From NCBI RefSeq assembly GCF_054482595.1, contig NZ_CM137008.1: a stretch of 64,000 nt of DNA; one strand, written 5' to 3'. Below are positions 11,583 to 63,599 of the stretch, in pieces (the first letter of the stretch is position 1; each line of letters begins with the position of its first letter). The notes beneath the pieces are model-generated. The model saw only the letters and a program-made list of their open reading frames with translations, ran no database searches and was not told the DNA's origin. The position numbers and the translations under genes are program-made.

Positions 11583-11602
11583 GCATTACGTTATGCTCAT
11601 AA

Positions 11603-12173: not shown

Positions 12174-12422
12174 AATTTCTCACATGTAATTCTGATCACT
12201 CATCATTATAGATAATTGAAGAGTGAAATGATTAACCAAGTGAGCGTTTATCGACAACCGCCCGTTTTGAGCGGATGTCGACAGGTAAAAACCATTTAAA
12301 AAAGTAGCATCATATATTTGAAGCGACTTTCAATGGCCATTGCAACACAGTCAGAAATGACAGGAATAGAGAGAGTAAAAAGCAACAACAGACTGAATAT
12401 AGCGCGCATTAAAAAATTCATA

Positions 12423-45347: not shown

Positions 45348-46103
45348 TTGAGTGCGGGACGCCTGAATAAAAAATCTCTGGGTATCGTGATGTTGTTATC
45401 GGTTGGACTGCTTTTGGTGGGCTGTTCGGGTAGCAAATCATCCGATACAGGAACGTATTCCGGCTCCGTTTACACCGTGAAACGGGGGGATACGCTATAT
45501 CGTATTTCGCGCACCACGGGAACCAGCGTAAAAGAGCTGGCGCGACTGAACGGCATTTCCCCCCCTTACACCATTGAAGTTGGTCAGAAACTAAAACTGG
45601 GTGGGGCGAAAAGTAGCAGTAGTACACGTAAATCAACCGCCAAATCAACGACCAAAACCGCATCGGTTACACCGTCATCAGCGGTACCGAAATCTTCCTG
45701 GCCGCCAGTAGGGCAACGTTGTTGGTTATGGCCAACGACAGGGAAAGTTATCATGCCGTATTCGACAGCAGATGGCGGCAATAAAGGGATTGATATCTCA
45801 GCTCCACGGGGTACACCTATTTACGCCGCGGGTGCAGGAAAGGTGGTGTATGTGGGCAACCAGCTGCGTGGCTACGGTAATCTCATCATGATTAAACACA
45901 GTGAAGATTACATTACGGCTTACGCCCATAATGACACGATGCTGGTAAATAATGGGCAAAGCGTGAAGGCTGGGCAAAAAATCGCCACCATGGGGAGCAC
46001 GGATGCGGCATCTGTTCGCCTGCATTTCCAGATTCGTTACCGTGCAACGGCAATTGATCCGCTACGTTACTTGCCGCCGCAGGGCAGCAAGCCAAAATGC
46101 TGA
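45348..46103 (+). CDS. ygeR: LysM / M23-peptidase-family lipoprotein (amidase activator)
   Basis: Supplied ORF 45324-46103; probable TTG start at 45348 (LSAGRLNKKSLGIVMLLSVGLLLVGCSG lipobox), LysM and C-terminal M23-like domain. Confidence 0.88.
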   Translation: MSAGRLNKKSLGIVMLLSVGLLLVGCSGSKSSDTGTYSGSVYTVKRGDTLYRISRTTGTSVKELARLNGISPPYTIEVGQKLKLGGAKSSSSTRKSTAKSTTKTASVTPSSAVPKSSWPPVGQRCWLWPTTGKVIMPYSTADGGNKGIDISAPRGTPIYAAGAGKVVYVGNQLRGYGNLIMIKHSEDYITAYAHNDTMLVNNGQSVKAGQKIATMGSTDAASVRLHFQIRYRATAIDPLRYLPPQGSKPKC

Positions 46104-46136
46104 TGGCGAATTAATCAGCAGTCAGCAGCGCGGCAC

Positions 46137-46164
46137 TTGCTAAGGAGAGCGTAAGGTTTATAAT
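46137..46164 (+). promoter_or_regulatory. Candidate sigma-70 promoter of glyU
   Basis: TTGCTA (46137-46142), 16-nt spacer, TATAAT (46159-46164), about 18 nt upstream of the mature tRNA 5' end. Confidence 0.55.
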
Positions 46165-46181
46165 GCCTTACGCATCTCGAA

Positions 46182-46255
46182 GCGGGCGTAGTTCAATGGT
46201 AGAACGAGAGCTTCCCAAGCTCTATACGAGGGTTCGATTCCCTTCGCCCGCTCCA
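46182..46255 (+). tRNA. glyU: tRNA-Gly (anticodon CCC)
   Basis: 74 nt: 7-bp acceptor stem GCGGGCG/CGCCCGC, anticodon loop CTTCCCAAG, T-loop GGTTCGATTCC, 3' CCA encoded. Confidence 0.95.
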
Positions 46256-46344
46256 AAACTTCCCTAACGTATTCATTCCACTATCTTTTTCTAAACTATA
46301 CGTGACGGCGCTCGTGATCCTCCTACAAAGGGGTCATACAGCCG

Positions 46345-48288
46345 ATGTCGCAGCGTGATAATCTCTATCGCCGTCCAAGTGGTATCTATGTTCTTCGGAT
46401 CACTGTTCCGGTTCGTTATCGCGCCCTTATAGGGCAGCGTGAAATTCATGCATCTACCCGCACAACCCACCTTGCAAATGCCAGAGCTATTGCCGCGTGT
46501 TTGCTGGAGAAGTGGTATGCGTCTCTGGAAGAGTTCAGGCAAGTGGATAAAGAGAAGATCAGGGGCAATGCCCCATTGTTGACTGGCGCTGGCAAAATCA
46601 GCCTGGCGTTGTTTTGCGATTCATTTGGGGTTGGGGTTGAGACTGTCGTCCAGCATCTTCTGGCAGACAATGTGCCGCTGTATGCCCTTGTGTCGAACCA
46701 GCGTGGCTTTTTGATTGATGATTTCAGCACTCTTGAGCGTGATCCTGATACGCATGGGTTCGTTTTGACTAATATTGCGTATGACGGTGCTGAGGCTGCG
46801 GTGAACGGCTATATGCAGCTTTACCAGCCTCAGTTTGCCCTTGTTGAATTGCTGAACGGGCGAGAGGTTGAGGTTACGGCATTCAGGGCTAACAACGGCA
46901 ACCCTCTTTCCCTCTGGTTGTTGGATTTACCCGGGGTGACGCTGAATGCAAGTTCTTTGTTCATCAACAACGTGCAGGCTGAAAAACTGCGTTACGTCTG
47001 GGATAGCGCGCTTGCAGCATCGGAACCGACATCAACCACCCCACCAAAAGCGCCGACAGCGGCGCTTCCTGCGGCCGCTACTATCAACCCGTATTGTAAT
47101 CCGATGCATGCAAGCATGACGGTTTCAGCAGTTCTGGAAGAGTTTCTGGCCTATAAAAATACGGGTGATATCAAGTTAGCCAGTGAGGGGAAAATTCGTT
47201 CCAGAATCGAGCACTTTACGGAGATTATGGGTGATATGTCCTTAGGTGAGCTGGATCGTGAGGTCGTGAAGGATTACGTCAGTAGAATGCAGAAAATGCC
47301 CGGCAATCTGTATTTGATGCGGCGGAAATACAAGATTTCCGACACGCGAATGTTGATCGAAAGGGCGCTGGCTGATGGTCAGCCGGTAATGAGCCGGGAT
47401 GCGATTGGCAGGCATATTGAGTCACTGGGTTCGATGTTCAAATGGGCCAAGAAGGTGCGTTACCTGCTTGATAATCCAGCCGAGAATGTGCTCGCTCAGC
47501 GCCGCGTGATGGTGCGTGAGCAGGATCGCCGAGATCTCTTCACCGAGGATGAACTATTGCGTATTTTCTCTGCTGACTGGTTCAAAACTGGTGCCGGAAC
47601 ACCTAACCAATACGGACGTTACACGAGCTTTCGCCCGTTTCACTACTGGTTGCCCCTACTGGCATTATATGTGGGCGGGCGCATCAATGAGCTTTGCCAG
47701 CTTTATCTGGCGGACATTCGCGTGGATAAAAACGGTGTTGCCTATATTGATTTTAATCTTGATGCACCGGATAAGATGATGGATGAAGAGGCACTAGCCG
47801 GTGGCGATAAATCCTTGAAAACGGTGAATGCTATCCGTCAGGTTCCCCTACATCCACGACTGATCGAACTAGGGCTACTTGAGTATGTGGATGCGTTGAA
47901 AGCTGCCGGGTATGATCGTCTTTTCCCTGAGTTGAAGCATAATAAAATCAAAGGATATCGTGCCGCCGCCTCAAAATGGTTTAACGAAAACTACTTTGGC
48001 AAAGTCCTCGGTTTTACCCGTGACGGTAAGAAAACGTTCCATTCGCTGCGGCATACTTTCATCAACGCTGTTGACAAGTATGAGACCAACGAACGCACGA
48101 TTGCGCAGCTTGTTGGACATGTCCGGGGCAGCACTACTGCGATGACAACCTATCGTAAGGATGCTGATGTGGGAGAGCAATTGGACGTGATTTCGCAGCT
48201 TTGCTACAACTTGCCTGATATTGCGCAATTCGACTCGCAAGCGGGTATCAAGGCGGTCAGTGACGCACGGCGCAGACATAAATCGTGA
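46345..48288 (+). CDS. Tyrosine site-specific integrase with a long N-terminal extension (647 aa)
   Basis: Starts 90 bp after glyU; C-terminal region carries HSLRHTF and GHVRGSTTAMTTYRKD (catalytic His-x-x-Arg and Tyr motifs). Confidence 0.85.
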   Translation: MSQRDNLYRRPSGIYVLRITVPVRYRALIGQREIHASTRTTHLANARAIAACLLEKWYASLEEFRQVDKEKIRGNAPLLTGAGKISLALFCDSFGVGVETVVQHLLADNVPLYALVSNQRGFLIDDFSTLERDPDTHGFVLTNIAYDGAEAAVNGYMQLYQPQFALVELLNGREVEVTAFRANNGNPLSLWLLDLPGVTLNASSLFINNVQAEKLRYVWDSALAASEPTSTTPPKAPTAALPAAATINPYCNPMHASMTVSAVLEEFLAYKNTGDIKLASEGKIRSRIEHFTEIMGDMSLGELDREVVKDYVSRMQKMPGNLYLMRRKYKISDTRMLIERALADGQPVMSRDAIGRHIESLGSMFKWAKKVRYLLDNPAENVLAQRRVMVREQDRRDLFTEDELLRIFSADWFKTGAGTPNQYGRYTSFRPFHYWLPLLALYVGGRINELCQLYLADIRVDKNGVAYIDFNLDAPDKMMDEEALAGGDKSLKTVNAIRQVPLHPRLIELGLLEYVDALKAAGYDRLFPELKHNKIKGYRAAASKWFNENYFGKVLGFTRDGKKTFHSLRHTFINAVDKYETNERTIAQLVGHVRGSTTAMTTYRKDADVGEQLDVISQLCYNLPDIAQFDSQAGIKAVSDARRRHKS

Positions 48289-48461
48289 GATGTGCCAAAC
48301 GCGCCAGGAAGCTCTATGGCGCGTTTTTTATCAAGGGTAGTGGAAATCATGGTGCGGAATTTGCGGCGCTTTCGTAGCTCGACTGGCGCAGCTAGATGAA
48401 TCAGATGTAACCTTCAACAAGCAGCCTCTTTCGCAATATTTAAACAACTAGCGGAGTATGG

Positions 48462-48677
48462 ATGTTAATGGCGACCTACAGACAAATTGCCGATGATGTT
48501 AAATCCCGAACGGGGAGAACAGTCAAAACATGTTGGATAGCGCATGTTAAGTCATTGCATGGGCTAACCCGCCGCGTATCTCCAAACCGCATTAGCACCG
48601 AAAGCCGTGTTTATCCTTGCCCTGATAAATGGGTTGCGGAGATCGAGCAATCAATGAGAAATCTGGGCGAGCTTTAG
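48462..48677 (+). CDS. Small DNA-binding protein, possibly AlpA/excisionase-like
   Basis: 71-aa ORF downstream of the integrase; C-terminal KWVAEIEQSM resembles the AlpA-family W-x-x-E-I motif; weak assignment. Confidence 0.35.
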   Translation: MLMATYRQIADDVKSRTGRTVKTCWIAHVKSLHGLTRRVSPNRISTESRVYPCPDKWVAEIEQSMRNLGEL

Positions 48678-49035
48678 CTCTTTACTGCGCCGCTTAACTT
48701 TTGAGTCTGTTTGGCTCTATAAGGACTGTCTCGCCGCCACGGAAATTTTCGGACGCAATGCCTGAGAGGGAGCTTCCAAACCTAGGACTTCCACTTTCCC
48801 GCACCCAACTTATCCGGCTGCTTTTAACCGCGAACACGTTGAAGGTTAACAACGTTTAGTTCATGTCTGACTGAAAGGAACGGCCACCGACAAACACCGT
48901 TAGAGAAGGTATGTAAGCTGATAGTTGAGTTGCTATATATACAGTTATTAAGAGAACTGCACCCAGACCAGCAGGAATGCAGCTTCTTTCCTGCTGATTG
49001 TCACTTTTTTCTGGAATAAGGGAACGAGCGGTAGT

Positions 49036-50052
49036 TCAAACGTGGAGACGACGTAAGGCGCCCTTGACGGCGTTTTGCAGATCGCTAACAACCGCCAGAT
49101 GAGAGCTTTCTTTCCGCAGACGCTTGTCACCGTTGACCATCATCCAGCTACGTTTATCCCTACGCCCGATGTTATTGAATGAATGCAAGCCGCGCTCGGC
49201 TGTTGCGTCGTTCACCCTACGAACTGCGTTGATAGCGGTAAACCTGAACATATCACCGTTAGCCATCATTTCAGGCTCGATTGGTTTGCGAAATTTGAAC
49301 AGGTGAGCGAGGGTTTCAAATCGAAAGTGTTGTATGTCGTTAAGGCGGTTAAGAGAGTAGTGAGTGAGCACAGCACCTTTTAACGTGACTTCAACACGAG
49401 CGCGTTGCTTTTCTACAGGTAGTTTCTGACCGTCGTCAGTGCATTTGTGGTAGACATGCCACGAGATCTTGTCCCACTTGTTACCCGTTCTCAGGTTCCA
49501 TTCAGGATTGATACGAACATCCTGAACATCAAGGAAAACATTTTGTCGAGTTACGGGATTGTATTGTCGGGCTTTGGTTCCCGGACTGAACAGGGAACTT
49601 TGAAGCCGATAGGTCATCGCATTTGTAGCGGTAATCGACCGGGCTTTGTGCCAGAAATCGCAGAAGACTTCGACCCCCACAATTTGCGGCTCGTAAGCAA
49701 ATGGGAAACGATTTTGTAATTGGTCGAGGGCGGCTTCCAACTTCCCGTTATGGTTTGCTAGTAGATCGCGAAAGCGAATCCGAAAAACGTTGTTAGTGTT
49801 GCTTATGATGGGCTTTACCCAAGGTTTGACGTAGTTACCGGGACGGTGTTCGCACGATGCCAATTTTGAGATACGTAGACCGCAGGGTTCAACCCAGAGT
49901 TTTAATCCGGTGATTTTAAGTAATTCTTCCTGAACATAGCGATGCTGGGTCAGTCTAGATAAGCTGATCGTTATGTCCAGCCAGTCGATCCCGGCTGAGA
50001 CTTTAAAGAATTTGCGGTCTGCTTCGGCAGCTTTGCATTCTCGACTCTTCAT
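49036..50052 (-). CDS. Hypothetical protein, possibly YagK/YfjJ-like (inovirus Gp2-type replication-associated)
   Basis: 338-aa ORF; N-terminal GIDWLDITIS motif and placement beside integrase/AlpA-like genes as in CP4-57-type elements; assignment from memory only. Confidence 0.4.
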   Translation of the reverse strand: MKSRECKAAEADRKFFKVSAGIDWLDITISLSRLTQHRYVQEELLKITGLKLWVEPCGLRISKLASCEHRPGNYVKPWVKPIISNTNNVFRIRFRDLLANHNGKLEAALDQLQNRFPFAYEPQIVGVEVFCDFWHKARSITATNAMTYRLQSSLFSPGTKARQYNPVTRQNVFLDVQDVRINPEWNLRTGNKWDKISWHVYHKCTDDGQKLPVEKQRARVEVTLKGAVLTHYSLNRLNDIQHFRFETLAHLFKFRKPIEPEMMANGDMFRFTAINAVRRVNDATAERGLHSFNNIGRRDKRSWMMVNGDKRLRKESSHLAVVSDLQNAVKGALRRLHV

Positions 50053-50173
50053 AGTGTGGCCTTATTGAACGGAATCTCAAACTGCCATCAGGGTAATTCG
50101 AACTGAGCAGGTTTGAGAGCATTCGAGCAAGGTAGCATAACAATTTTAAGATAAAAACCTTACTTATCAACTA

Positions 50174-50198
50174 ACTGCGTTCATATTCTGAACGCAGT
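50174..50198. promoter_or_regulatory. Perfect 10-bp inverted repeat (candidate operator) in divergent intergenic region
   Basis: actgcgttca-tattc-tgaacgcagt between the YfjJ-like gene and the serine recombinase gene. Confidence 0.4.
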
Positions 50199-50355
50199 AG
50201 TCGTTGTTAACTTAAAGGCATGAGAACACTGTCGTTTTTCATATACAAAGGGTGCTTCGGCTCACCTGTAGCGATTCAGAGAAAGCACATGGTGCTATCT
50301 GGTAAAGCCGTCAGCCAGCCTAATATGTCTTACCACTTTTGAGCGCCAACAAACG

Positions 50356-50457
50356 ACCGTTTTCTGGCACCTTTCGATCGCACACTTTCACACTGTTGGA
50401 AAATTAGCCTTGGCTTTTCTGGCAGGCCATCCTAAGTTGACACCGTTTTCTGGCAGG
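50356..50457 (+). repeat. Three direct repeats of TTTTCTGGCA upstream of the serine recombinase gene
   Basis: ccgttttctggcac (50358-50370), gcttttctggcagg (50413-50426), ccgttttctggcagg (50444-50457); 20-125 bp upstream of the recombinase start. Confidence 0.45.
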
Positions 50458-50477
50458 GGCCGGAAGAGGAGATGACT

Positions 50478-51041
50478 ATGGCGATTTTTGGCTACGGGCG
50501 CGTTTCGACATCGCAGCAGGATACTGAGAACCAGCGTTTGGAACTTGAGCAAGCTGGATGGACTTTCGACTTTTGGTTTACTGATGTTGTTAGCGGGAAG
50601 GTTCCTGCGCTGCAACGCAAAGCGTTTTCCGAAATGCTCAGCAAAATCCGCGATGGTGAAACGCTGGTTGTTGCCAAACTCGACCGACTGGGACGCGATG
50701 CGATTGATGTTCTCCAGACTGTCAGGGCGATGGCCGAGCGTAATATCAAGGTCATTGTCCACCAGCTTGGCACAACGGATCTCTCCTCTGCTGCCGGTAA
50801 ACTTCTGTTGTCGATGCTGTCAGCAGTTGCGGAGATGGAACGTGACCTACTGATTGAGAGGACCCATGCGGGTTTGTTGCGGGCAAAAGCTGAAGGCAAG
50901 AAGCTGGGAAGACCGTCGAAAATCGCCCCAGAAGTCCATAGGCTGATTATTGAGAAAAAGAATAATGGAGCCAGTGTCAGCGCACTAGCGAGGGAGTATG
51001 GCGTTTCCAGAGCGACTATAGCTGCACTATTAGATTATTAG
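50478..51041 (+). CDS. Serine recombinase (resolvase / DNA-invertase family)
   Basis: Supplied ORF 50472-51041; N-terminal GYGRVSTSQQ catalytic-Ser motif, KLDRLGRD, C-terminal HTH; second ATG at 50478 has better SD spacing. Confidence 0.88.
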   Translation: MAIFGYGRVSTSQQDTENQRLELEQAGWTFDFWFTDVVSGKVPALQRKAFSEMLSKIRDGETLVVAKLDRLGRDAIDVLQTVRAMAERNIKVIVHQLGTTDLSSAAGKLLLSMLSAVAEMERDLLIERTHAGLLRAKAEGKKLGRPSKIAPEVHRLIIEKKNNGASVSALAREYGVSRATIAALLDY

Positions 51042-51127
51042 CAATTTAGATTTTTATTACAACTTCTGAATGGCAAGAGTGCTAATCTTGGAGAGTAAAA
51101 GCCCCCAAATGGGGGCTAAGTTAATAA

Positions 51128-52903
51128 CTAATAATGGACGTTTGCGATGAATTGAGGGAGAAGTTCTTTAAAATCATCTCTATACATATCCATATCACTC
51201 TGGAAACGAGAGATTATTTCTGTAATTTCTTTGCTTTTGGATAATCTTCCTGCTGTAGCTGGTTCTAACAGTGCAGATCTTGTTAATACCCTTTTTATTA
51301 CAGGGATCCATAACTCCTTCGCATTTTCTCTATTGACGCCATCTTTGAAGGATAATGAATATTTATTAGGTATCGCTGAACCTAATATTATTTCCAATAT
51401 GCTTGCTATAGCATGAATCATTAACAGTGATACGCCAGGTTGGGTCAATAGCTTATGTTTAATAGTATCTATTTCAGGAAGCTGGTTATGCCTAAATTGT
51501 TCATTAAAATCCGATTTTATCTGGCTTATAGCTTCATTTAAAGAATAGACAAAGATAATATGACCTAGAGTAATTGTATCATCAAAAGCCTTTTTATAGA
51601 GATCCTCATCATCCCAAATATCTTTTTTTCGATGATATGCACTTGTAGGATGAGCATGAAAAGCGATCAGGATTTGTGCAACTGTATCCGTTGGTAATAA
51701 AATTCTTTTTTGAGCCGGAGTTAACACTTGGCGAAGGCCACCTGTATATAAAGCTTCCTTATTTTTCTCGAAATCCTTTCTTAATCTTTTTTGTATAGAA
51801 TCACTGGAGCGAAAATCTGAGCGCAAGACCTTGTTTTGTGAATTATTCGCTAGAGTGATTTCATTAATTAGTTCGGGATTATTAACTCTTATGAACCTAA
51901 TTGCAACTCTTAGCGTATCATCTGGATCTTTCCCTAAATTTGAAATACTACCAGTAGTTTGAGCACCATTGACAATAGAAATACCAGTAACACTTTTAAT
52001 TTGACCGAGTGTTTTGGATTCGTCAATGAAATCAATTTCAAAATCATGGACTAAGGCAGTGATTCCGTTATTAAATACAAAGAAATTTCCTGGGTGTGTT
52101 TTAGCCGTGTTTTGTATTTCATTATTTATTGAGAGGTCTTTTTTATTACTTCCTAAATAAGACCTTACATTAGCGCTGAATAGTTTATCTTCACCGTAGC
52201 TATTATATAGTTCTTTAATAAATTTCCCTGGCATAAGGGTAGAAAATGAGGCCCAGTTTTCATTAGAGTTTTGATAAAAGCCATGCATACCAGTCAGCGA
52301 TATTTTATCTGATATCAAAATTGGACTGTGTTGAGAGTTATATAATTCATCAAGTGAACTTAAACCCATTTGCTTGGAGCTTATTCTCAGGTTATCAATA
52401 TGATAAATTGAGTTTAATTTGTCCATAATTGAACGCCCAATCGAATGTAAAGGTTTCTCACATTCTGGTGTTTCAGGGCAGTTATGAACAAACCATACAT
52501 TTATTTTCTCAATTTCATTATTTCTTAAAGCATCTCTTGCATCTTTTACCTGATCCCTTATCCTCAGAGGTATATTCTCTATATCAGCGGAAAGCAACGC
52601 GGTTTCTGCATAAGCTGTTTCTTGGGCCTTAGACGGCTTGGCCCCTTGAGGTCGAAATATAGTAGATTGATAAGATTGTATAAGATATATTTGTTTGCTT
52701 TCTCTATCGGTCATTAATATGTCTATATTTTCATCATCTCCCCCTTCAGTTATTATGTCGGGAGCTATCAATTCAATGCTGTCTATATTGTTATGTAACT
52801 CTATTGCATATAATGCACAATTTAAATTACCATATTTTTCTAGATCTTTTCTCTGTTGCAATGCTGACCAGAAAGAACTATCTGAAAGCTGTGTATATGT
52901 CAT
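51128..52903 (-). CDS. Hypothetical 591-aa protein, candidate abortive-infection (AIPR-like) phage-defence protein
   Basis: Long uninterrupted ORF in a visibly AT-rich segment with A/T-rich codon usage unlike flanking core genes; no Walker A motif; family assignment by size/context only. Confidence 0.6.
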   Translation of the reverse strand: MTYTQLSDSSFWSALQQRKDLEKYGNLNCALYAIELHNNIDSIELIAPDIITEGGDDENIDILMTDRESKQIYLIQSYQSTIFRPQGAKPSKAQETAYAETALLSADIENIPLRIRDQVKDARDALRNNEIEKINVWFVHNCPETPECEKPLHSIGRSIMDKLNSIYHIDNLRISSKQMGLSSLDELYNSQHSPILISDKISLTGMHGFYQNSNENWASFSTLMPGKFIKELYNSYGEDKLFSANVRSYLGSNKKDLSINNEIQNTAKTHPGNFFVFNNGITALVHDFEIDFIDESKTLGQIKSVTGISIVNGAQTTGSISNLGKDPDDTLRVAIRFIRVNNPELINEITLANNSQNKVLRSDFRSSDSIQKRLRKDFEKNKEALYTGGLRQVLTPAQKRILLPTDTVAQILIAFHAHPTSAYHRKKDIWDDEDLYKKAFDDTITLGHIIFVYSLNEAISQIKSDFNEQFRHNQLPEIDTIKHKLLTQPGVSLLMIHAIASILEIILGSAIPNKYSLSFKDGVNRENAKELWIPVIKRVLTRSALLEPATAGRLSKSKEITEIISRFQSDMDMYRDDFKELLPQFIANVHY

Positions 52904-53053
52904 GATAAAACCCTTTTTATTAATATGTAAATTTTATCTCATTCTATCTAAAATCATTTTTTTATATCTAATGATATAACATTAAATGTATGTGAAATAT
53001 TTAATGGTATCTGCTATGCCTTTGTTTATTAAAGCACAGTCTTCAAATCAGGG

Positions 53054-53161
53054 TCAACCAAACCACAGTATATTATATCCAACTATTGGATGTCGGTAAG
53101 CGACTAAGGCTAGTTGAGGTAACACATAAATAATACAATACCTTAGGGTATTGAGTTTCAT
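53054..53161 (-). CDS. Possible small ORF (35 aa, hydrophobic) with strong Shine-Dalgarno
   Basis: Minus-strand GAAGGAGGGACAGG-ATG...TGA encoding [35 protein letters not shown]; lies between IS2 and the 591-aa gene; several rare codons, so may be non-coding. Confidence 0.2.
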
Positions 53162-53289
53162 CCTGTCCCTCCTTCTACGAACGTATCCACGCAGCGACTA
53201 GACTGGCCCCCTGAATCTCCAGACAACCAATATCACTTATTTAAGTGATAGTCTTAATACTAGTTTTTAGACTAGTCATTGGAGAGCAG

Positions 53290-53655
53290 ATGATTGATGT
53301 CTTAGGACCGGAGAAACGCAGACGGCGTACTACACAGGAAAAGATCGCTATTGTTCAGCAGAGTTTTGAACCGGGAATGACAGTCTCCCTTGTTGCCCGG
53401 CAACACGGTGTGGCAGCCAGCCAGTTATTTCTCTGGCGCAAGCAATACCAGGAGGGAAGTCTTACTGCTGTGGCCGCAGGAGAACAGGTCGTTCCTGCCT
53501 CTGAACTTGCTGCCGCCATGAAGCAGATTAAAGAACTCCAGCGCCTGCTCGGCAAAAAAACGATGGAAAATGAACTCCTTAAAGAAGCCGTTGAATACGG
53601 GCGTGCAAAAAAGTGGATAGCGCACGCGCCCTTATTGCCCGGGGATGGGGAGTAA
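53290..53655 (+). CDS. insC: IS2 transposase OrfA
   Basis: [41 protein letters not shown], matches remembered IS2 InsC. Confidence 0.95.
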
Positions 53656-54518
53656 GCTTAGTCAGCCGTTGTCTCCGGGTGTCGCGTGCGCAGTTGCACG
53701 TCATTCTCAGACGAACCGATGACTGGAAAGATGGTCGCCGCAGCCGTCACTCAGATGATACGGATGTGCTTCTCCGTATACACCATGTTATCGGAGAGCT
53801 GCCCACATATGGTTATCGTCGGGTATGGGCGCTGCTTCGCAGACAGGCCGAACTTGATGGTATGCCTGCGATCAATGCCAAACGTATTTACCGGATCATG
53901 CGCCAGAATGCGCTGTTGCTTGAGCGAAAACCCGCTGTACCGCCATCGAAACGGGCACATACCGGCAGAGTGGCTGTGAAAGAAAGTAATCAGCGATGGT
54001 GCTCTGACGGGTTCGAGTTCCGCTGTGATAACGGAGAAAAACTGCGAGTCACGTTCGCGCTGGACTGCTGTGACCGTGAGGCACTGCACTGGGCGGTCAC
54101 TACGGGCGGCTTCAACAGTGAAACAGTACAGGACGTCATGCTGGGAGCGGTGGAACGCCGTTTCGGCAACGAGCTTCCGGCGTCTCCAGTAGAGTGGCTG
54201 ACGGATAATGGTTCATGCTACCGGGCTAATGAAACACGGCAGTTTGCCCGGATGTTGGGGCTTGAACCGAAGAACACGGCGGTGCGGAGTCCGGAGAGTA
54301 ACGGCATAGCAGAGAGCTTCGTGAAAACGATAAAGCGTGACTACATCAGTGTCATGCCCAAACCAGACGGGTTAACGGCAGCAAAGAACCTTGCAGAGGC
54401 ATTCGAGCATTATAACGAATGGCATCCGCATAGTGCACTGGGTTATCGCTCGCCACGGGAATATCTACGGCAGCAAGCCAGTAATGGGTTAAGTGATAAC
54501 AGGTGTCTGGAAATATAG
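53613..54518 (+). CDS. insD: IS2 transposase OrfB (DDE integrase domain)
   Basis: 301-aa ORF overlapping insC in the -1 frame, matches remembered IS2 InsD. Confidence 0.95.
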
Positions 54519-54640
54519 GGGCAAATCCAGCGACTTCTTGAGCTTCGCCTGAAAAATTTGAAACCATGCGCTTGATGAGAATTGCATCTAGGTTACATTT
54601 GTGGGAACAGATCGTTGCTAGGGTAGCTATAAAATAAAAA

Positions 54641-55393
54641 TTATAATTTATTCATGCAGTTAGTGTAAATGAATGCCGCTGAAACCTGAGCATCTTGCTT
54701 GGGGTGTTCATATACATAGTCAACGAAGGTTTTATAGAGCGCAATCATCTGGGGTGTGACTTCGGACTTGCCATTCATATTATCGAGACGCTGATAATAG
54801 TCTGCTTTGGTCATTCCTCCGTTTCGGCCTTTGGTTACGTTTGCGGTGAATTGTGCTATACCCATACACATTTGATCTTTATGGTTATTCGTTTTATCCG
54901 GGTGAAGAGCACCTTCCAACACTTTATCACCGCTGATGGCATGTTGCGCCCACGCTGAATTGTTGGCGATAAACTTTTTGGAGCCGGTGGCAATACCGTA
55001 TTCGATGCGAATGCCATTATCGTGATAGCTACCGTCAGCATCTTTAGTCGCTAACTTTAGAGATATGCGGCAACCGGGGAGCGTTTTGTGTTCTTGCACC
55101 GAAGCAATAACGGTGTCTGTATCGCAATCAGCAAAGCTGTATGTGGGATTAACATAGGTATTCGTTTTGAGTAGTAACCCGGTTAAGCCGTTTTTATAGC
55201 CTTTTGCCGGTAGGGTTTTAAAGGCGTTACGGTCGCCATCCTTAATCGCTTCCCGAAACTGATCCATCCCAATGCGGATTGCCAGTTGATCGATGCTCTC
55301 GGCTGCATATGATGCAGATGATGTAGCGATTAATATGATGCTCAGCAAAAACTTGGCTGGAAAAACGGGTTTAATAATTCGTGTTTGTGACAT
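54641..55393 (-). CDS. Secreted protein of unknown function (signal peptide)
   Basis: Supplied ORF 54641-55492; probable start MSQTRIIKPVFPAKFLLSIILIATSSASYAAE (55393) with AAGGA SD; predicted signal peptide cleavage near SYA-AE; several Cys. Confidence 0.6.
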   Translation of the reverse strand: MSQTRIIKPVFPAKFLLSIILIATSSASYAAESIDQLAIRIGMDQFREAIKDGDRNAFKTLPAKGYKNGLTGLLLKTNTYVNPTYSFADCDTDTVIASVQEHKTLPGCRISLKLATKDADGSYHDNGIRIEYGIATGSKKFIANNSAWAQHAISGDKVLEGALHPDKTNNHKDQMCMGIAQFTANVTKGRNGGMTKADYYQRLDNMNGKSEVTPQMIALYKTFVDYVYEHPKQDAQVSAAFIYTNCMNKL

Positions 55394-55510
55394 GTTGTTA
55401 TCCTTCAGAATCCACCCCTGCGGTGATTTTAATCGCATGATAACGCTTTGATTCAAAATGTCACTATTGGAGCGTGGCTCTTTAGTGGACATCTAATCAA
55501 ATTCAGGAGG

Positions 55511-55975
55511 ATGAAAAAGACCCTTCGATTTTTATTTGGACAACGTGTTAAGGCTCTACGTATAGCCGCCGGAATGAGCCAGGAAGCGTTTGCTGATCGG
55601 TGTGGATTTGCGCGTAGCTATATGAGCCGCATTGAACGTGGTTGCTCTAACGCGTCTCTTGATGCGATTGAGGTATTGGCTGAAGCTTTAAGTGTTGAGC
55701 CTTGGCAATTGTTAGCGTCCGATTCTTCCGAAGATAGCGCCCCGGAATTGTTGGTTCCATACGCGGCCGATGGCTCGTGCTTTCATCCCGGACTAGCGAG
55801 CACGCGCGATGGTTCGTTTGGTGTAGGTGATAAAGCCGCTCAGAAGCGTTTTGGCTCGTTTTTAGAAGCATTAGAGTATCTACGTAACATGAAGACAGCA
55901 AAATGGCGCAGACCCAATTCTAGCGGCAACTGGGGTATCGTATCAGCGGTTCGTTGGGACAAGCTGAGAAAGTAG
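55511..55975 (+). CDS. HTH (XRE-family) transcriptional regulator with C-terminal domain of unknown function
   Basis: Supplied ORF 55448-55975; start at 55511 (AGGAGG + ATG); N-terminal LRIAAGMSQEAFADRCGFARSYMSRIERG helix-turn-helix; about 80-aa uncharacterised C-terminal extension. Confidence 0.75.
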   Translation: MKKTLRFLFGQRVKALRIAAGMSQEAFADRCGFARSYMSRIERGCSNASLDAIEVLAEALSVEPWQLLASDSSEDSAPELLVPYAADGSCFHPGLASTRDGSFGVGDKAAQKRFGSFLEALEYLRNMKTAKWRRPNSSGNWGIVSAVRWDKLRK

Positions 55976-56150
55976 CTCAGGTGTAAGTTTCAGATTTTAA
56001 ATTACTGAATAAATAAACAGCTACCACATGAGGTGAATGGCCGCACGTTTTATCTGGCACTGATAACTATCAGCATTCCTAAAACACCAAAATACGGGTG
56101 CGTTACGTAGGCGTTACAGTGGCGTTTCACTTCAGCAATGGAGAGTGCTT

Positions 56151-57023
56151 TTGAAAAATAATCATTTGATATCATATGGTTTCCTAACCTCGCTGAGTGA
56201 TATTGAATTACTGTCGCTTCACTCCGAAATTTTAACGCAGTTGCGTTTTAGAGGTGTCATTCGCACCAAGAATAATCCTGTTGGTGACTATGCTGAATGG
56301 CTGGTTTCTAATGCACTGGGTATGACTCTTCTCAGTAATTCGTCGGCGGGTGCTGATGCCATTGATGCTGATGGCCTGAAAGTGCAGATCAAAGCTAGGA
56401 GAGTTACGCCGGATAATCCTTCCCGGCAGCTTAGTGCCTTGCGTAACTATGAGGCAGCCGAATTTGATTATTTAATCGCGGTTATTTTCGATGAGACTTA
56501 CAACATTCTTGATGCTTACAAAATCCCACATGAAGTAATACGAGATTATGCACGGCATAGTGACCACGTTAACGCACATATCGTTAACCTCAAGGGCGCG
56601 ATTCTTACTGATCCCCGAGTTAGTTCCATCAAAGAAGACTTGATTGTCAGGAGTTCGGCTTCAGTCAATGAAGCGGCTATGCAAACCCTTCCACCCGAAC
56701 CTATGGAAGAGGTTTTGAATCAACCAGAGAAGATAACGAGTAGTGTTACCTTGGTCAGCCTCCTTAAGGCTATCGGGATGGAGTGCTTTGTAAACTACTA
56801 CCATCATTTTGCCGATTCAAATTTATCAAGCGCTGATATCATTGAGCAAATGCACTCACGTGAGGGTTACACAGAGAAAAGTTGCCGGGGCCGTCTCAGT
56901 AAAGCGCGAAAAGTGATCAGGGATGGTTTAAGTATTGAGGCTTTGACGTTGATCGCTGACTCTGGGCGAATACAAGATTCTGTCAGAAGTGACGCGCTAA
57001 AACTTATCAGCGTTCTGGAGTGA
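56151..57023 (+). CDS. Hypothetical protein with Mrr-like (PD-(D/E)xK) nuclease motif
   Basis: Supplied ORF 56145-57023 (GTG); TTG at 56151 has GGAGAG SD; residues about 47-87 GDYAEWLVSNALGMTLLSNSSAGADAIDADGLKVQIKARRV fit the Mrr-cat pattern (Asp cluster then Q-x-K); C-terminal about 150 aa unassigned. Confidence 0.6.
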   Translation: MKNNHLISYGFLTSLSDIELLSLHSEILTQLRFRGVIRTKNNPVGDYAEWLVSNALGMTLLSNSSAGADAIDADGLKVQIKARRVTPDNPSRQLSALRNYEAAEFDYLIAVIFDETYNILDAYKIPHEVIRDYARHSDHVNAHIVNLKGAILTDPRVSSIKEDLIVRSSASVNEAAMQTLPPEPMEEVLNQPEKITSSVTLVSLLKAIGMECFVNYYHHFADSNLSSADIIEQMHSREGYTEKSCRGRLSKARKVIRDGLSIEALTLIADSGRIQDSVRSDALKLISVLE

Positions 57024-57076
57024 AGCGGTTTGCAAAACGTTGTAGTTCCTCCTACAAAACCCTCCTACAATGCACC

Positions 57077-57539
57077 GGTAATGACTCCAACTTATTGATA
57101 GTGTTTTATGTTCAGATAATGCCCGATGACTTTGTCATGCAGCTCCACCGATTTTGAGAACGACAGCGACTTCCGTCCCAGCCGTGCCAGGTGCTGCCTC
57201 AGATTCAGGTTATGCCGCTCAATTCGCTGCGTATATCGCTTGCTGATTACGTGCAGCTTTCCCTTCAGGCGGGATTCATACAGCGGCCAGCCATCCGTCA
57301 TCCATATCACCACGTCAAAGGGTGACAGCAGGCTCATAAGACGCCCCAGCGTCGCCATAGTGCGTTCACCGAATACGTGCGCAACAACCGTCTTCCGGAG
57401 CCTGTCATACGCGTAAAACAGCCAGCGCTGGCGCGATTTAGCCCCGACGTATCCCCACTGTTCGTCCATTTCCGCGCAGACGATGACGTCACTGCCCGGC
57501 TGTATGCGCGAGGTTACCGACTGCGGCCTGAGTTTTTTA
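57077..57539 (-). mobile_element. IS1 remnant (about 463 bp, truncated by IS26)
   Basis: Begins with IS1 terminal repeat GGTAATGACTCCAACTTATTGATAGTG; encodes the C-terminal part of InsB (supplied ORF 57092-57586); IS1 sequence stops at the IS26 end. Confidence 0.9.
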
Positions 57540-58359
57540 GGCACTGTTGCAAAGTTAGCGATGAGGCAGCCTTTTGTCTTATTCAAAGGCCTTACATTTC
57601 AAAAACTCTGCTTACCAGGCGCATTTCGCCCAGGGGATCACCATAATAAAATGCTGAGGCCTGGCCTTTGCGTAGTGCACGCATCACCTCAATACCTTTG
57701 ATGGTGGCGTAAGCCGTCTTCATGGATTTAAATCCCAGCGTGGCGCCGATTATCCGTTTCAGTTTGCCATGATCGCATTCAATCACGTTGTTCCGGTACT
57801 TAATCTGTCGGTGTTCAACGTCAGACGGGCACCGGCCTTCGCGTTTGAGCAGAGCAAGCGCGCGACCATAGGCGGGCGCTTTATCCGTGTTGATGAATCG
57901 CGGGATCTGCCACTTCTTCACGTTGTTGAGGATTTTACCCAGAAACCGGTATGCAGCTTTGCTGTTACGACGGGAGGAGAGATAAAAATCGACAGTGCGG
58001 CCCCGGCTGTCGACGGCCCGGTACAGATACGCCCAGCGGCCATTGACCTTCACGTAGGTTTCATCCATGTGCCACGGGCAAAGATCGGAAGGGTTACGCC
58101 AGTACCAGCGCAGCCGTTTTTCCATTTCAGGCGCATAACGCTGAACCCAGCGGTAAATCGTGGAGTGATCGACATTCACTCCGCGTTCAGCCAGCATCTC
58201 CTGCAGCTCACGGTAACTGATGCCGTATTTGCAGTACCAGCGTACGGCCCACAGAATGATGTCACGCTGAAAATGCCGGCCTTTGAATGGGTTCATGTGC
58301 AGCTCCATCAGCAAAAGGGGATGATAAGTTTATCACCACCGACTATTTGCAACAGTGCC
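57540..58359 (-). mobile_element. IS26 (IS6 family), copy 1
   Basis: 820 bp bounded by GGCACTGTTGCAAA terminal inverted repeats (57540 and 58346-58359); carries tnp26. Confidence 0.95.
57592..58296 (-). CDS. tnpA: IS26 transposase Tnp26
   Basis: Supplied ORF 57592-58314; start [31 protein letters not shown] (234 aa). Confidence 0.95.
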
Positions 58360-58461
58360 TCCTTTTTGATAATCTCATGACCAAAATCCCTTAACGTGAG
58401 TTTTCGTTCCACTGAGCGTCAGACCCCGTATAGTGTTTTGCAGTTTAGAGGAGATATCGCG

Positions 58462-59322
58462 ATGCATACGCGGAAGGCAATAACGGAGGCGCTTCAAAAA
58501 CTCGGAGTCCAAACCGGTGACCTCTTGATGGTGCATGCCTCACTTAAAGCGATTGGTCCGGTCGAAGGAGGAGCGGAGACGGTCGTTGCCGCGTTACGCT
58601 CCGCGGTTGGGCCGACTGGCACTGTGATGGGATACGCGTCGTGGGACCGATCACCCTACGAGGAGACTCTGAATGGCGCTCGGCTGGATGACGAAGCCCG
58701 CCGTACCTGGCTGCCGTTCGATCCCGCAACAGCCGGGACTTACCGTGGGTTCGGCCTGCTGAATCAATTTCTGGTTCAAGCCCCCGGCGCGCGGCGCAGC
58801 GCGCACCCCGATGCATCGATGGTCGCGGTTGGTCCGCTGGCTGAAACGCTGACGGAGCCTCACGAACTCGGTCACGCCTTGGGGGAAGGATCGCCCGTCG
58901 AGCGGTTCGTTCGCCTTGGCGGGAAGGCCCTGCTGTTGGGTGCGCCGCTAAACTCCGTTACCGCATTGCACTACGCCGAGGCGGTTGCCGATATCCCCAA
59001 CAAACGGTGGGTGACGTATGAGATGCCGATGCTTGGAAGAGACGGTGAAGTCGCCTGGAAAACGGCATCGGATTACGATTCAAACGGCATTCTCGATTGC
59101 TTTGCTATCGAAGGAAAGCCGGATGCGGTTGAAACTATAGCAAATGCTTACGTGAAGCTCGGTCGCCATCGAGAAGGTGTCGTGGGCTTTGCTCAGTGCT
59201 ACCTGTTCGACGCGCAGGACATCGTGACGTTCGGCGTCACCTATCTTGAGAAGCATTTCGGAACCACTCCGATCGTGCCTCCGCACGAGGCCGTCGAGCG
59301 CTCTTGCGAGCCTTCAGGTTAG
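58462..59322 (+). CDS. aac(3)-II: Aminoglycoside N(3)-acetyltransferase, AAC(3)-II type (gentamicin/tobramycin resistance)
   Basis: Supplied ORF 58396-59322; from MHTRKAITEALQKLGVQTGDLLMVHASLKAIGPVEGG matches remembered AAC(3)-IIa/IId (286 aa); sub-variant not resolvable by eye. Confidence 0.9.
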   Translation: MHTRKAITEALQKLGVQTGDLLMVHASLKAIGPVEGGAETVVAALRSAVGPTGTVMGYASWDRSPYEETLNGARLDDEARRTWLPFDPATAGTYRGFGLLNQFLVQAPGARRSAHPDASMVAVGPLAETLTEPHELGHALGEGSPVERFVRLGGKALLLGAPLNSVTALHYAEAVADIPNKRWVTYEMPMLGRDGEVAWKTASDYDSNGILDCFAIEGKPDAVETIANAYVKLGRHREGVVGFAQCYLFDAQDIVTFGVTYLEKHFGTTPIVPPHEAVERSCEPSG

Positions 59323-59334
59323 AGGCCGTCGACA

Positions 59335-59547
59335 ATGATAATCTGGATCAACGGACCTTTCGGCGCCGGAAAGACGACGCTCGCTAAGCGGCTGCGCGAT
59401 CGGCGTTCCAAATCGCTGATCTTTGACCCCGAGGAAATCGGGTTCGTGGTGAAAGAAACGGTCCCCATGCCAGCGAGCGGAGACTATCAGGATCTCCCCT
59501 TGTGGAGGGGACTTACGATCGCGGCGGTCAGGGAGATTCGAAGGAAT
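59335..59547 (+). pseudogene. tmrB: Truncated tunicamycin-resistance gene tmrB (5' part only, cut by IS26)
   Basis: MIIWINGPFGAGKTTLAKRL P-loop N-terminus; reading frame runs into the IS26 terminal repeat at 59548. Confidence 0.8.
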
Positions 59548-60367: not shown

Positions 60368-60436
60368 GGATTGAATATAACCGACGTGACTGTTACATTT
60401 AGGTGGCTAAACCCGTCAAGCCCTCAGGAGTGAATC

Positions 60437-63161: not shown

Positions 63162-63599
63162 ACGGAGGTGTGCAGAGTCCCTGCGGCAGGCGACGAACAC
63201 GACCGTCGTCGATTAGTACCGGTACGGTCGGTGGTATCGAAGTCTTGATCACCACTCAGGTCTACGGCTTACAAATGGTGACCATCCCGATACTTGCGTC
63301 AGAGCACCGGGCCGATTCTTTGACAGTGAATCACTCCCGTAAGGTTGTGCCGGTGTGGGTGTCCCGGGTCGAGACGATACTCCGCCAATGCGCCCAGCAA
63401 ACAACCTGGCCATCGCAGGTGGTGGGGAGCGGTGTGGCGGATGAGTTGGACAAGTTGGTGTAGCAGCACGAGCACGGCGAGATAACATCGCAGGAGTTCG
63501 ACATGCTCAAGAGACAGCTGATTGCGAATCGCGATGCAGATTCATAACCCGATTGCGGGTTGGCTTCACTCCACCATCACCGAGCAGACTAGCACGGCG

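Follow-up and report, generated by a model that had tools for sequence, protein, structure and literature searches.

The stretch of DNA analysed here, 64,000 nucleotides of contig NZ_CM137008.1 (RefSeq assembly GCF_054482595.1) and hereafter called the window, carries a tRNA-integrated island in which a small serine recombinase gene lies between two cargo slots (Table 1). The left end of the island is formed by the 3' end of a tRNA-Gly gene and a tyrosine integrase. The 19-bp attL repeat at this tRNA is found again at the right island end in two related loci (L001 and L018), and the window has no second copy of it, i.e., attR is missing. The preliminary description of the window had considered that the recombinase mobilises the element. 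This was not borne out, because the 647-aa tyrosine integrase at tRNA-Gly and the 19-bp attL/attR repeat explain integration without the recombinase. The ORF in cargo slot 1 has ~90% identical DNA on plasmids, where it also lies beside DUF1643. The divergent DUF1643 gene itself is reduced to a remnant that has lost ~390 bp relative to intact alleles, as seen in two-piece alignments to loci with the intact 468-nt gene. A literature search on 'DUF1643' returned incidental annotation mentions only. On its other side the recombinase gene is convergent, as had been proposed, with the 591-aa ORF of slot 2, from which it is separated by a gap of 86 bp. Related islands have other genes in slot 2. The right-hand module of the island spans 55511..57023 on the plus strand. 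The island contains no recognised replication gene. Across eight chromosomal loci no tnpA was annotated or visible within the island, and no flanking inverted repeats were found. Islands of this family are ~7-11 kb in size, are located at tRNA-Gly (glyU) or tRNA-Leu, and carry largely defence-type cargo. They are present in ~13% of complete E. coli genomes (about one in seven or eight), and O157:H7 and Nissle 1917 are among the carriers.

Table 1. Features of the island and of the recombinase locus, in window coordinates.
Feature	Coordinates	Strand	Description	Basis
Island left end	46238..48288	+	attL = 3' end of tRNA-Gly(CCC) (TTCCCTTCGCCCGCTCCAA, 46238-46256), plus integrase	tRNA scan, Pfam
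Tyrosine integrase	46345-48288	+	647 aa	Pfam DUF6538 + Phage_integrase
Cargo slot 1	49036..50052	-	338-aa ORF	no Pfam or PADLOC match
Remnant of divergent DUF1643 gene	50207..50305	-	pseudogene	RefSeq pseudogene in identical locus
Predicted res site I (crossover)	50344..50369	+	CGCCAACAAACG-AC-CGTTTTCTGGCA; 26 bp, 12-2-12	dyad scan
Predicted res site II (accessory)	50394..50424	+	TGTTGGAAAA-TTAGCCTTGGC-TTTTCTGGCA; 31 bp	dyad scan
Putative recombinase promoter	50410..50438	+	-35 TTGGCT 50410-15, 17-bp spacer, -10 TAAGTT 50433-38	read from sequence
Predicted res site III (accessory)	50434..50455	+	AAGTTGACA-CC-GTTTTCTGGCA	motif search
Small serine recombinase gene	50478..51041	+	187 aa	ORF list, Pfam, alignment, RefSeq, dN/dS
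G+C-rich hairpin between convergent recombinase and AIPR genes	51100..51117		terminator-like on minus strand	
Cargo slot 2	51128..52903	-	AIPR / AbiU-like defence candidate, 591 aa	Pfam AIPR 4.1e-34; PADLOC AbiU 1.7e-29
XRE/C-protein-like HTH (right-hand module)	55511-55975	+		PADLOC Control_protein 2.8e-18; RefSeq name
DUF6998 protein	56145-57023	+	N-terminus similar to methyl-directed restriction enzymes	PADLOC mREase_II 5.3e-70; RefSeq name

The recombinase gene encodes an unremarkable member of an enzyme class that is well understood. The first ATG of its open reading frame is at 50472 (ORF 50472-51041, plus strand), which gives an alternative protein of 189 aa. In strain THO-010, whose locus is 100% identical, RefSeq places the start at the second ATG, which is window position 50478 and yields 187 aa. 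This start fits an AGGAG at 50464-50468 and is the sole ATG retained in plasmid alleles. Pfam assigns residues 5-144 to the Resolvase N-terminal domain (PF00239, E=3.7e-36), and residues 146-183 match HTH_7 at 23.4 bits, slightly below the cut-off of 23.8 bits. The gamma-delta and Tn3 resolvases align with the recombinase end to end (95.7 and 90.2 bits, respectively), and these alignments extend through residue 184-185 and include the DNA-binding domain. The catalytic residues are kept, and R8, S10 and D69/R70/R73 align with R8, S10 and D67/R68/R71 of gamma-delta resolvase. The gene thus encodes what the preliminary description took it for, a serine recombinase of ~190 aa, and the intact protein unites the two features of the family, a Ser/Arg catalytic domain and a C-terminal HTH in a total length of ~180-200 aa. 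The ORF is unbroken and all catalytic residues are present in nine of nine E. coli alleles examined. Its dN/dS of 0.08-0.15 against island and plasmid alleles indicates purifying selection. On the evidence as a whole, the recombinase is probably catalytically competent and of the resolvase type. NCBIfam gave sub-threshold matches only, to Mpi (98.9 bits against a cut-off of 272), XisF and Ccr, which are uninformative for the subfamily. No PADLOC model matches the recombinase, and a literature search found no paper on the recombinase of this island. The plasmid record OZ023075.1 wrongly names its 186-aa recombinase homologue 'tnpA: Tn3 family transposase'.

Directly upstream of the gene, dyad scans and a motif search predict three subsites that resemble a res site and that the recombinase would bind. 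Site I, the candidate crossover site, has its centre AC at 50356-50357. It holds the only AAAC[CG]NN[CG]GTTT core within the 64-kb window. Site II is the top long-spacer dyad of the entire window, with a score of 20/20. The halves of site III resemble a direct repeat, of which the right half is a perfect copy of the motif and the left half is a putative binding half-site. The motif (C/G)TTTTCTGGCA has three copies in the 100 bp upstream of the gene, where ~1.5 are expected per 64 kb. The entire window has five perfect half-site matches, of which four fall at 50360-50446. The left halves of sites I, II and III are imperfect in the window allele. A promoter may overlap sites II and III (Table 1); its -10 hexamer is TATTTT in most alleles, and a strict consensus promoter scan did not report it.

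The same three-subsite layout recurs upstream of homologues with 71% (L019), 63% (L006), 55% (L007) and 50% identity (L008), and it is kept in five further lineages. Site I is the same 26-bp 12-2-12 dyad upstream of the L019, L007 and L008 homologues and a 25-bp version of it in L006. Site II is 31-32 bp long across the homologues, and the half-site pair of site III has an equivalent in all four loci. From the left end of site I to that of site II it is 50 bp in the window, in L006 and in L007, and 40 bp in L008, which is shorter by about one helical turn. The preliminary description had left it undecided whether the recombinase resolves or mobilises the element or controls an invertible segment. 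Resolution is the option favoured by a res-like site whose predicted three-subsite layout is conserved down to 50% identity, and neither mobilisation nor inversion held up.

The gene and its upstream site probably form a res-resolvase cassette of ~700 bp (50344-51041). Of eight other E. coli alleles compared, seven are 88-91% identical in the res region, and the O111 allele is 78.5% identical there. The gene is less conserved at its third codon positions, with 66-79% identity. Among the islands compared, conservation on the left starts at the outer edge of site I, and on the right it stops at the stop codon of the recombinase. The left neighbours in the loci compared are deleted, cut by IS26, or swapped for a NUDIX gene or another ORF. 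The cassette is a constant core with a variable cargo slot on each side. Related blocks on plasmids carry it without an integrase. The alleles on these plasmids, among which are IncF plasmids, are 88-100% identical to the island copies, and the protein WP_001549652.1 is common to the H9Ecoli chromosome and the plasmid pRes13.

Variable DNA within a few bases of both cassette ends, together with identical or near-identical cassettes on islands and plasmids such as the H9Ecoli and pRes13 pair, would also suit a module-exchange hub. In such a hub, the cargo slots would arise from res x res exchange of islands with plasmids, or from capture by transposons that target res. Mosaic formation at res sites is well known in Tn3-family transposons. 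A resolvase crossover would place homology breakpoints at the site I centre; we looked for them there and found them at the outer edge of the site, and resolvase-mediated exchange is not claimed. The O111 and ET745 loci have the same left half-site with different flanks. The right slot starts past the stop codon, in a place without a site. Resolvases disfavour intermolecular reactions, and neither tni-type nor Tn3-type transposition genes are found nearby. A role as an exchange hub is highly improbable.

Does the recombinase flip a DNA segment? A cis-acting invertase like Hin, Gin or Pin could invert an adjacent segment, for example the promoter of the AIPR gene or of neighbouring cargo, and the size class, the domain pair, the position beside a defence gene and the sub-threshold Mpi invertase family match, which is the best one in NCBIfam, are all in keeping with this. 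The preliminary description had seen no invertible promoter flanked by inverted repeats and had proposed a systematic search within about 3 kb. We ran this search over 46000-58500, and it returned no pair of recombination sites. Apart from the terminal repeats of IS2 (53208-53239 and 54490-54521), it yielded nothing beyond pairs at chance level (15-26 nt, 73-100% complementarity, mostly intragenic), and all of these were rejected as recombination sites. A degenerate dyad scan found no second site-I-like dyad and no second res in 64 kb. When 5,426 genomes were searched by BLAST with the 38-bp site I region, an approach that a strongly diverged partner would escape, site I was at one place per genome in 736 of the 738 E. 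coli genomes that carry it. The earlier observation therefore holds under computation by repeat search, dyad scan and BLAST.

The loci themselves agree with this result. Collinearity holds for all 14 near-identical loci and for each relative sampled. The sole inversion seen, in strains Santai and SM107, has one end within the AIPR gene, which it splits, and the other at the DUF6998 gene. Two IS1 copies in opposite orientation bound it, and it is credited to IS1 and not to the recombinase for that reason. The space between the recombinase gene and the stop codon of the AIPR gene is only the 86-bp gap, with a hairpin inside. Additionally, Gin and PinE are 36% identical to the recombinase and belong to another clade. 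Control of an invertible segment, as entertained in the preliminary description, is not supported, given the missing inverted partner site, the single-copy site I, the collinear loci and the IS1 boundaries of the only inversion. The cis-acting invertase is already largely refuted and scarcely credible.

A small neighbour-joining tree of 13 sequences places the recombinase in its own clade (98% bootstrap) together with plasmid resolvases and PinR/PinQ-like proteins. This clade is separate from the Gin/Pin invertases and from the Tn3/gamma-delta/Tn21-type resolvases. A firm placement with transposon resolvases, which the preliminary description had named as evidence against its proposal, did not literally emerge, as the recombinase belongs to a third clade; nor does it fall among the Gin/Pin invertases. 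It is 33-34% identical to the Tn3, gamma-delta and Tn21-type resolvases, 36% to Gin and PinE, and 43% to the PinR/PinQ-like protein of phage 2H10. The homologues at 50-64% identity are stand-alone plasmid genes with no transposase annotated in the flanks fetched. Among them, the pSCD homologue of Sulfuricella (64% identity) lies between toxin-antitoxin genes. The region upstream of the 2H10 PinR-like gene, aligned by eye, resembles a degenerate form of the res of the Citrobacter plasmid homologue.

The clade shared with the 2H10 protein raises another reading, in which the recombinase is a trans-acting invertase of the PinQ/PinR kind that works as part of defence on hix/gix/pix-like sites elsewhere, such as prophage tail-fibre segments. 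According to one study, PinQ promotes in trans the inversion of the e14 P segment, and its overproduction raises this inversion and blocks adsorption of phage T2 (PMC12529663). In the same study the P segment is locked in pinE mutants, and therefore direct catalysis by PinQ is not established (PMC12529663). The identity criterion for PinQ was >90% (PMC12529663), as against 43% between the recombinase and the 2H10 PinR/Q-like protein. Site I does look like pix/gix sites, with its 26-bp 12-2-12 arrangement and inner AAAAC(C/G)-NN-(C/G)GTTTT core, and the island holds many defence-type genes. Yet the helix-turn-helix residues are VSRAT in the recombinase and TSRQT in PinR/Q, and the 2H10 protein has Cys-Asn in place of the catalytic Arg-Asp, and the recombinase has an intact Arg where the Cys stands. 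No other site in the window has the core motif, and the gene has a conserved three-subsite res of its own. Accessory sites such as II and III typify systems that are selective for resolution, as in Tn3/gamma-delta. We regard a PinQ/PinR-like invertase as quite unlikely here. More broadly, it is improbable that the cassette is an active part of defence-island function, be it through PinQ-like rearrangement on phage attack or as a hub for swapping cargo.

A further reading is that the cassette is a decaying relic of plasmid origin, whose protein is purposeless or does no more than regulate transcription at the divergent promoter region. Each chromosome has one res, the divergent partner DUF1643 is already destroyed in this lineage, and the island copy in the window is probably immobile because attR is missing. 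Purifying selection acts on the gene despite the single res in the chromosomal island, and the ORF is intact with its catalytic residues in every E. coli allele examined. Repression alone would need no Ser/Arg active site, and the crossover site I is as conserved as the promoter-proximal sites. For these reasons we consider a relic or pure repressor unlikely, although not to the degree of the alternatives that involve invertases or exchange.

As a whole, the evidence is best explained by an enzyme of the resolvase type that, with its own res, forms the core of a family of tRNA islands and does not control an invertible segment, and we hold this explanation to be probable. The computed evidence comprises the domains and catalytic residues, the arrangement and conservation of the sites, purifying selection, the single copy and collinearity; DNA binding at the predicted sites, resolution, autoregulation and a biological role are inferred. 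By analogy with Tn3/gamma-delta resolvase, this role is likely the resolution of multimers or cointegrates, combined with autoregulation. Recombinase dimers would bind the three subsites, and two directly repeated res sites on the same supercoiled molecule would synapse. The DNA would be cut at the centre of site I and the strands exchanged by rotation, so that a dimer or cointegrate would give two monomers. Occupancy of sites II and III, over the putative promoter, may repress both the recombinase gene and the divergent gene. With one res in the chromosome, the recombinase has no recombination partner there. In the chromosome it might at most regulate its own gene, until the module comes to lie on a multimerised circular replicon, which could be a plasmid or possibly the excised island.

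A phase-variable switch beside a defence gene was a tempting idea, and being unsupported it is now removed. It is replaced by an anatomy that can be tested, namely a 26-bp crossover site and two accessory sites within a cassette of ~700 bp. How 'integrase-only' defence islands move is unclear in the literature, and the occurrence of the same cassette on plasmids links these islands to plasmid-type modules. Moreover, PinR and PinQ, recently proposed as defence invertases, sit in a clade whose other members have resolvase-type res sites, and this bears on how the PinQ claim is read.

The island can be compared to the 'integrase-only' defence islands of E. coli, which are likewise small and tRNA-integrated, carry defence cargo and integrase or recombinase genes, and have no recognised transfer genes (Hochhauser et al. 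2023, PMC10121019). In pipolins, small resolvase-like serine recombinases accompany a separate integrase and have been interpreted as handling circular forms (PMC11551731); unlike pipolins, the island has no piPolB. Neither of these two papers describes the cassette or its res site. The Hin/Gin/Cin/Pin invertases are of the same superfamily and size class as the recombinase, and share the 26-bp 12-2-12 crossover site and its AAAAC(C/G)-NN-(C/G)GTTTT core. They differ in clade and in identity (36%); the cassette has accessory sites II and III, and no inverted partner site, invertible segment or inversion polymorphism was found for it. PinR and PinQ of the Rac and Qin prophages (PMC12529663) belong to the same clade (98%) at 43% identity. 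The recombinase departs from them in the sequence of its recognition helix, in having its own intact res and in keeping the Arg that is Cys in the PinR-like protein.

The TnpR resolvases of Tn3 and gamma-delta (Tn1000) have the same size and the same combination of a Ser-nucleophile catalytic domain and a C-terminal HTH. Their three sites, too, lie directly upstream, between divergent genes, and the crossover site is the one farthest from the gene. The centres of sites I and II are ~52 bp apart here and ~53 bp apart in gamma-delta. Site I differs, being 26 bp (12-2-12) with an AC or AA centre where that of Tn3/gamma-delta is 28 bp with an AT centre, and site III here resembles a direct repeat of half-sites. 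The recombinase stands at 33-34% identity to these resolvases and in a separate clade. Unlike Tn3-family elements, it is accompanied by no transposase and no terminal inverted repeats; its partner gene is DUF1643 and its host is a tRNA-integrated island. Comparison with plasmid multimer resolution draws on uncharacterised homologues, with RK2 ParA and R46 Per left out. These homologues, from Sulfuricella pSCD, a Citrobacter pco plasmid and an Eleftheria plasmid, are represented here as putative stand-alone multimer-resolution resolvases. The copy in the window differs from them in being chromosomal and having one res, and it shares with them the clade (50-63% identity), the three-subsite res layout and the half-site family TGYYRGAAA.

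The small serine recombinase encoded at 50478-51041 (+) belongs to an ordinary enzyme class and to an uncharacterised clade, and it has a well-defined cognate site. The feature is real; the idea that it works an invertible switch is not supported. In the RefSeq annotation of the identical locus of E. coli THO-010, translation starts at the second ATG of the open reading frame, window position 50478, which gives 187 aa. An AGGAG lies 9 nt before this ATG, and plasmid alleles keep it as their sole start ATG. By Pfam it has a Resolvase catalytic domain (3.7e-36) and HTH_7 (23.4 bits, slightly below the 23.8-bit cut-off). Residues 1-184 align with gamma-delta resolvase (95.7 bits) and Tn3 resolvase (90.2 bits), the alignment to Gin is confined to the catalytic domain (78 bits), and the catalytic residues of gamma-delta resolvase have their counterparts in R8, S10 and D69/R70/R73. 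These domains and alignments bear out the preliminary description of a serine recombinase with a C-terminal HTH, and the gene is indeed convergent with the 591-aa ORF, an AbiU-like defence candidate (AIPR gene). The 186-aa recombinase of plasmid pF1200-2 (OZ023075.1, 8004-8564) is wrongly labelled 'tnpA: Tn3 family transposase'.

Three direct copies of (C/G)TTTTCTGGCA lie upstream of the gene at 50359, 50414 and 50445, with about 1.5 matches expected per 64 kb, and a three-subsite res is predicted here (see table). Predicted site II is the top long-spacer dyad of the whole window (20/20), and of the window's five perfect matches to the half-site consensus, four fall within res. The same layout recurs upstream of the 71% homologue in MT836560.1 (TGCCACAATACG-AC-CGTTTTCTGGCA, then TGACAGGAAAATAGCCTTGGCTTTTCTGACA), the 63% homologue on Sulfuricella plasmid pSCD, the 55% homologue on an Eleftheria plasmid (TGTCAGAAAAGG-AA-CGGTTTCCGACA) and the 50% homologue on a Citrobacter pco plasmid (TGTACGAAATCG-AA-CGGTTTCGTACA). 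From left end to left end, sites I and II lie 50 bp apart in the first three of these lineages; in Citrobacter the distance is 40 bp, shorter by about one turn of the helix. The helix-turn-helix tracks the half-site, VSRAT occurring with TG(C/T)(C/T)(A/G)GAAA and TSRQT with TGTACGAAA. A promoter overlapping sites II and III is plausible (-35 TTGGCT, 50410-15; -10 TAAGTT, 50433-38); the putative -10 is TATTTT in most alleles, and a strict consensus scan did not return this promoter.

It is the architecture of this predicted region that decides between invertase and resolvase. Both options had been entertained for the enzyme; the three-subsite res favours resolution, whereas phylogeny by itself falls short of a firm placement among transposon resolvases. 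A small neighbour-joining tree of 13 sequences (200 bootstraps; without Hin, Cin, ParA, Per, TniR, Sin and beta recombinase) comprised three island alleles including the window copy, one IncF plasmid allele, three remoter plasmid homologues, and as references Gin (phage Mu), PinE (K-12 e14), a PinR/Q-like protein (phage 2H10), TnAs3 TnpR, and gamma-delta and Tn3 resolvase, the last two from PDB alignments. In it the query groups with the plasmid homologues and the PinR/Q-like protein in a clade (98% support) that excludes Gin/PinE as well as Tn3, gamma-delta and TnAs3. Identity to the query is 87-91% for the island and IncF plasmid alleles, 63, 55 and 50% for the distant plasmid homologues, 43% for the PinR-like protein, 36% for Gin and PinE and 33-34% for Tn3-type resolvases.

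PinQ of the Qin prophage is reported to raise inversion of the e14 P segment in trans, so blocking T2 adsorption, and pinE mutants are reported to be fixed in one orientation (PMC12529663, 2025). The query might likewise be a trans-acting, PinQ-like invertase that acts on sites elsewhere. In favour of such a role are the presence of PinR/Q in its clade and the invertase sites pix (CTCTCGAAAACC-TT-GGTTTGGGAGAA) and gix, which resemble query site I in their 26-bp 12-2-12 geometry and inner core. We consider it unlikely, however, as identity to the PinR-like protein is so low, the recognition helices differ, and the query retains a complete predicted res with accessory sites, which impose resolution selectivity in characterised systems. 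It also counts against this role that the 'DNA invertase' gene of the PinR/PinQ-like type in lambdoid phage 2H10 (NC_049950.1, 1250-2082) has a degenerate res-like region only, and that its protein carries Cys-Asn in place of the catalytic Arg-Asp (KLDRLGCN, against KLDRLGRD in resolvases). By eye, the sequence upstream of this phage gene can be aligned with the res of the Citrobacter plasmid homologue, with a degenerate site I on the phage side. Both the Cys-Asn and the degenerate site I bear on how the reported inversion activity of PinQ is to be interpreted.

The proposal that the recombinase controls an invertible segment fared worse. No invertible promoter flanked by inverted repeats had been obvious, and a computed search agrees: in 46000-58500 there are no flanking inverted-repeat pairs beyond chance except the IS2 ends. 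The window holds no second site-I-like or site-II-like dyad, and a single copy of the core AAAC[CG]NN[CG]GTTT is present in 64 kb. In 736 of 738 genomes the 38-bp site I region maps to a single place, and in 14 of 14 near-identical strains it does so exactly once. In assembled genomes, a weaker test than reads, a 4.3-kb query (338-aa ORF, recombinase and AIPR) was collinear across every near-identical genome, and so was a 4-kb minimal-island query across a spread sample of the family. Collinear assemblies and the missing partner site thus argue strongly against an invertible segment. The only inversion found, at 10547-15351 in E. coli O157:H16 Santai (NZ_CP007592.1) and also in SM107, runs from inside the AIPR gene, left in two pieces, to the DUF6998 gene. 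It was rejected as a product of the recombinase; its ends are two oppositely oriented IS1 copies.

The window is E. coli chromosome, with xdhCBA and actS (ygeR) followed by tRNA-Gly(CCC) at 46182-46255, and the recombinase island is inserted at the 3' end of this tRNA gene. In THO-010, whose otherwise identical island lacks IS2, and in the related-island strain H9Ecoli, the right end repeats the 19 bp of attL. In the window the right end is cut at 57077 by a partial IS1 (57077-57539) and IS26 (57540-58359), and no attR is present; a chromosomal resistance region follows this first IS26 (within 57077-64000). The conserved right-hand pair of HTH and DUF6998 genes (55511-57023) resembles a controlled restriction module. 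Its HTH protein hits R-M control (C) proteins (2.8e-18), and PADLOC 'Type II methyl-directed restriction enzyme' is matched by the first 155 residues of the DUF6998 protein (5.3e-70). Elsewhere in the island family this last gene is replaced by a different one. The 338-aa ORF (no family match) always adjoins DUF1643 (window 49036-50305; pF1200-2, 6173-7812; locus L009, 5130-6637), which in this strain has shrunk to a 99-nt remnant. Plasmid copies of the ORF lie near mobI/TraI-domain genes, which suggests that it and DUF1643 are a plasmid-derived module.

Features of the island and adjoining resistance region (window positions)
Feature	Position	Strand	Remarks
attL, TTCCCTTCGCCCGCTCCAA	46238-46256		19 bp; island left end
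Tyrosine integrase	46345-48288		647 aa; first gene of island
Small ORF			between integrase and 338-aa ORF
338-aa ORF	49036-50052	-	function unassigned
DUF1643 gene remnant	about 50207-50305		~390 bp deleted; followed by recombinase, AIPR gene, IS2
Predicted res site I, CGCCAACAAACG-AC-CGTTTTCTGGCA	50344-50369		26 bp, 12-2-12; dyad reading
Predicted res site II, TGTTGGAAAA-TTAGCCTTGGC-TTTTCTGGCA	50394-50424		31 bp; dyad reading
Predicted res site III, AAGTTGACA-CC-GTTTTCTGGCA	50434-50455		halves resemble direct repeat
Recombinase ORF	50472-51041	+	first ATG at 50472
Hairpin	51100-51117		in 86-bp spacer between recombinase and AIPR gene
AIPR gene	51128-52903	-	591 aa; AIPR by Pfam, AbiU-like by PADLOC
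IS2	53208-54521		terminal inverted repeats; between AIPR and exported-protein genes
Exported-protein gene	54641-55492	-	
C-protein-like HTH	55511-55975		
DUF6998 protein	56145-57023		N-terminus matches methyl-directed restriction enzymes
AAC(3)-II-like gene	58396-59322		identity by reading translation
Second IS26	about 59593-60315		identity by reading translation
mph(A)-like gene	60437-61342		identity by reading translation
mrx-like gene	61339-62577		identity by reading translation
mphR-like gene	62577-63161		identity by reading translation
IS6-family transposase fragment	63654-63974		identity by reading translation

The eight chromosomal loci examined lie at glyU or at tRNA-Leu beside ahr/yjgR and include O157 strains, O111:H21, ECONIH5, ET745, PapM and H9Ecoli. 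Order and orientation are the same in all: tRNA(+), integrase(+), cargo 1, DUF1643(-), recombinase(+), cargo 2, HTH(+), last gene. Cargo 1 differs (338-aa ORF, AAA ATPase, NIPSNAP, DUF4160), as does cargo 2 (AIPR, 438-aa ORF, 165-aa ORF or none), and DNA homology between the window and these loci stops at the recombinase stop codon and restarts at the exported-protein or HTH genes. The recombinase is a fixed core of the island family. Of 5,426 complete E. coli genomes, 721 contain its DNA (14 at 99% identity or more); related modules occur in 879 genomes, Nissle 1917 and many O157:H7 strains among them. An integrase-less version of the block occurs on plasmids such as pF1200-2, where it adjoins mobI/traI-type genes, and pRes13, which has allele WP_001549652.1 in common with the H9Ecoli chromosome. 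MT836560.1, a 9.7-kb contig (9,704 bp) from a human faecal virome deposited as 'UNVERIFIED Bacteriophage sp.', has an integrase of 665 aa, a recombinase of 196 aa (71% identical to the query) with the same res, the HTH regulator and unrelated cargo. We rejected it as a phage, since this gene content marks it as a member of the island family that turned up in a virus-enriched sample.

Across nine E. coli alleles, identity of the res region to the window is 88-91%, with 78.5% in one allele, and third codon positions of the gene are just 66-79% identical across the same alleles; dN/dS of the gene is 0.08-0.15. Conservation starts at most about 3 bp from the outer edge of site I even where the left neighbour is altered by a 390-bp deletion (window), IS26 truncation (pRes13), a NUDIX gene (O111:H21) or another ORF (ET745). 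Gene and res thus behave as one ~700-bp unit under purifying selection.

By analogy with Tn3 and gamma-delta resolvases, recombinase dimers would bind predicted sites I to III, two directly repeated res on one molecule would synapse, and cutting at the site I centre (50356/57) with rotation strand exchange would yield two monomers; occupancy of sites II and III would repress the recombinase gene. The chromosome has one res, so the recombinase has no partner there; purifying selection nonetheless continues to act on the gene in chromosomal islands. Selection on it probably reflects a role played while the module resides on a plasmid, or possibly in an excised circular island, where the recombinase would resolve multimers or cointegrates. 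Small tRNA-integrated defence islands of E. coli have been labelled 'integrase-only' (PMC10121019), and for pipolins a similar part in resolution has been suggested for their resolvase-like genes (PMC11551731).
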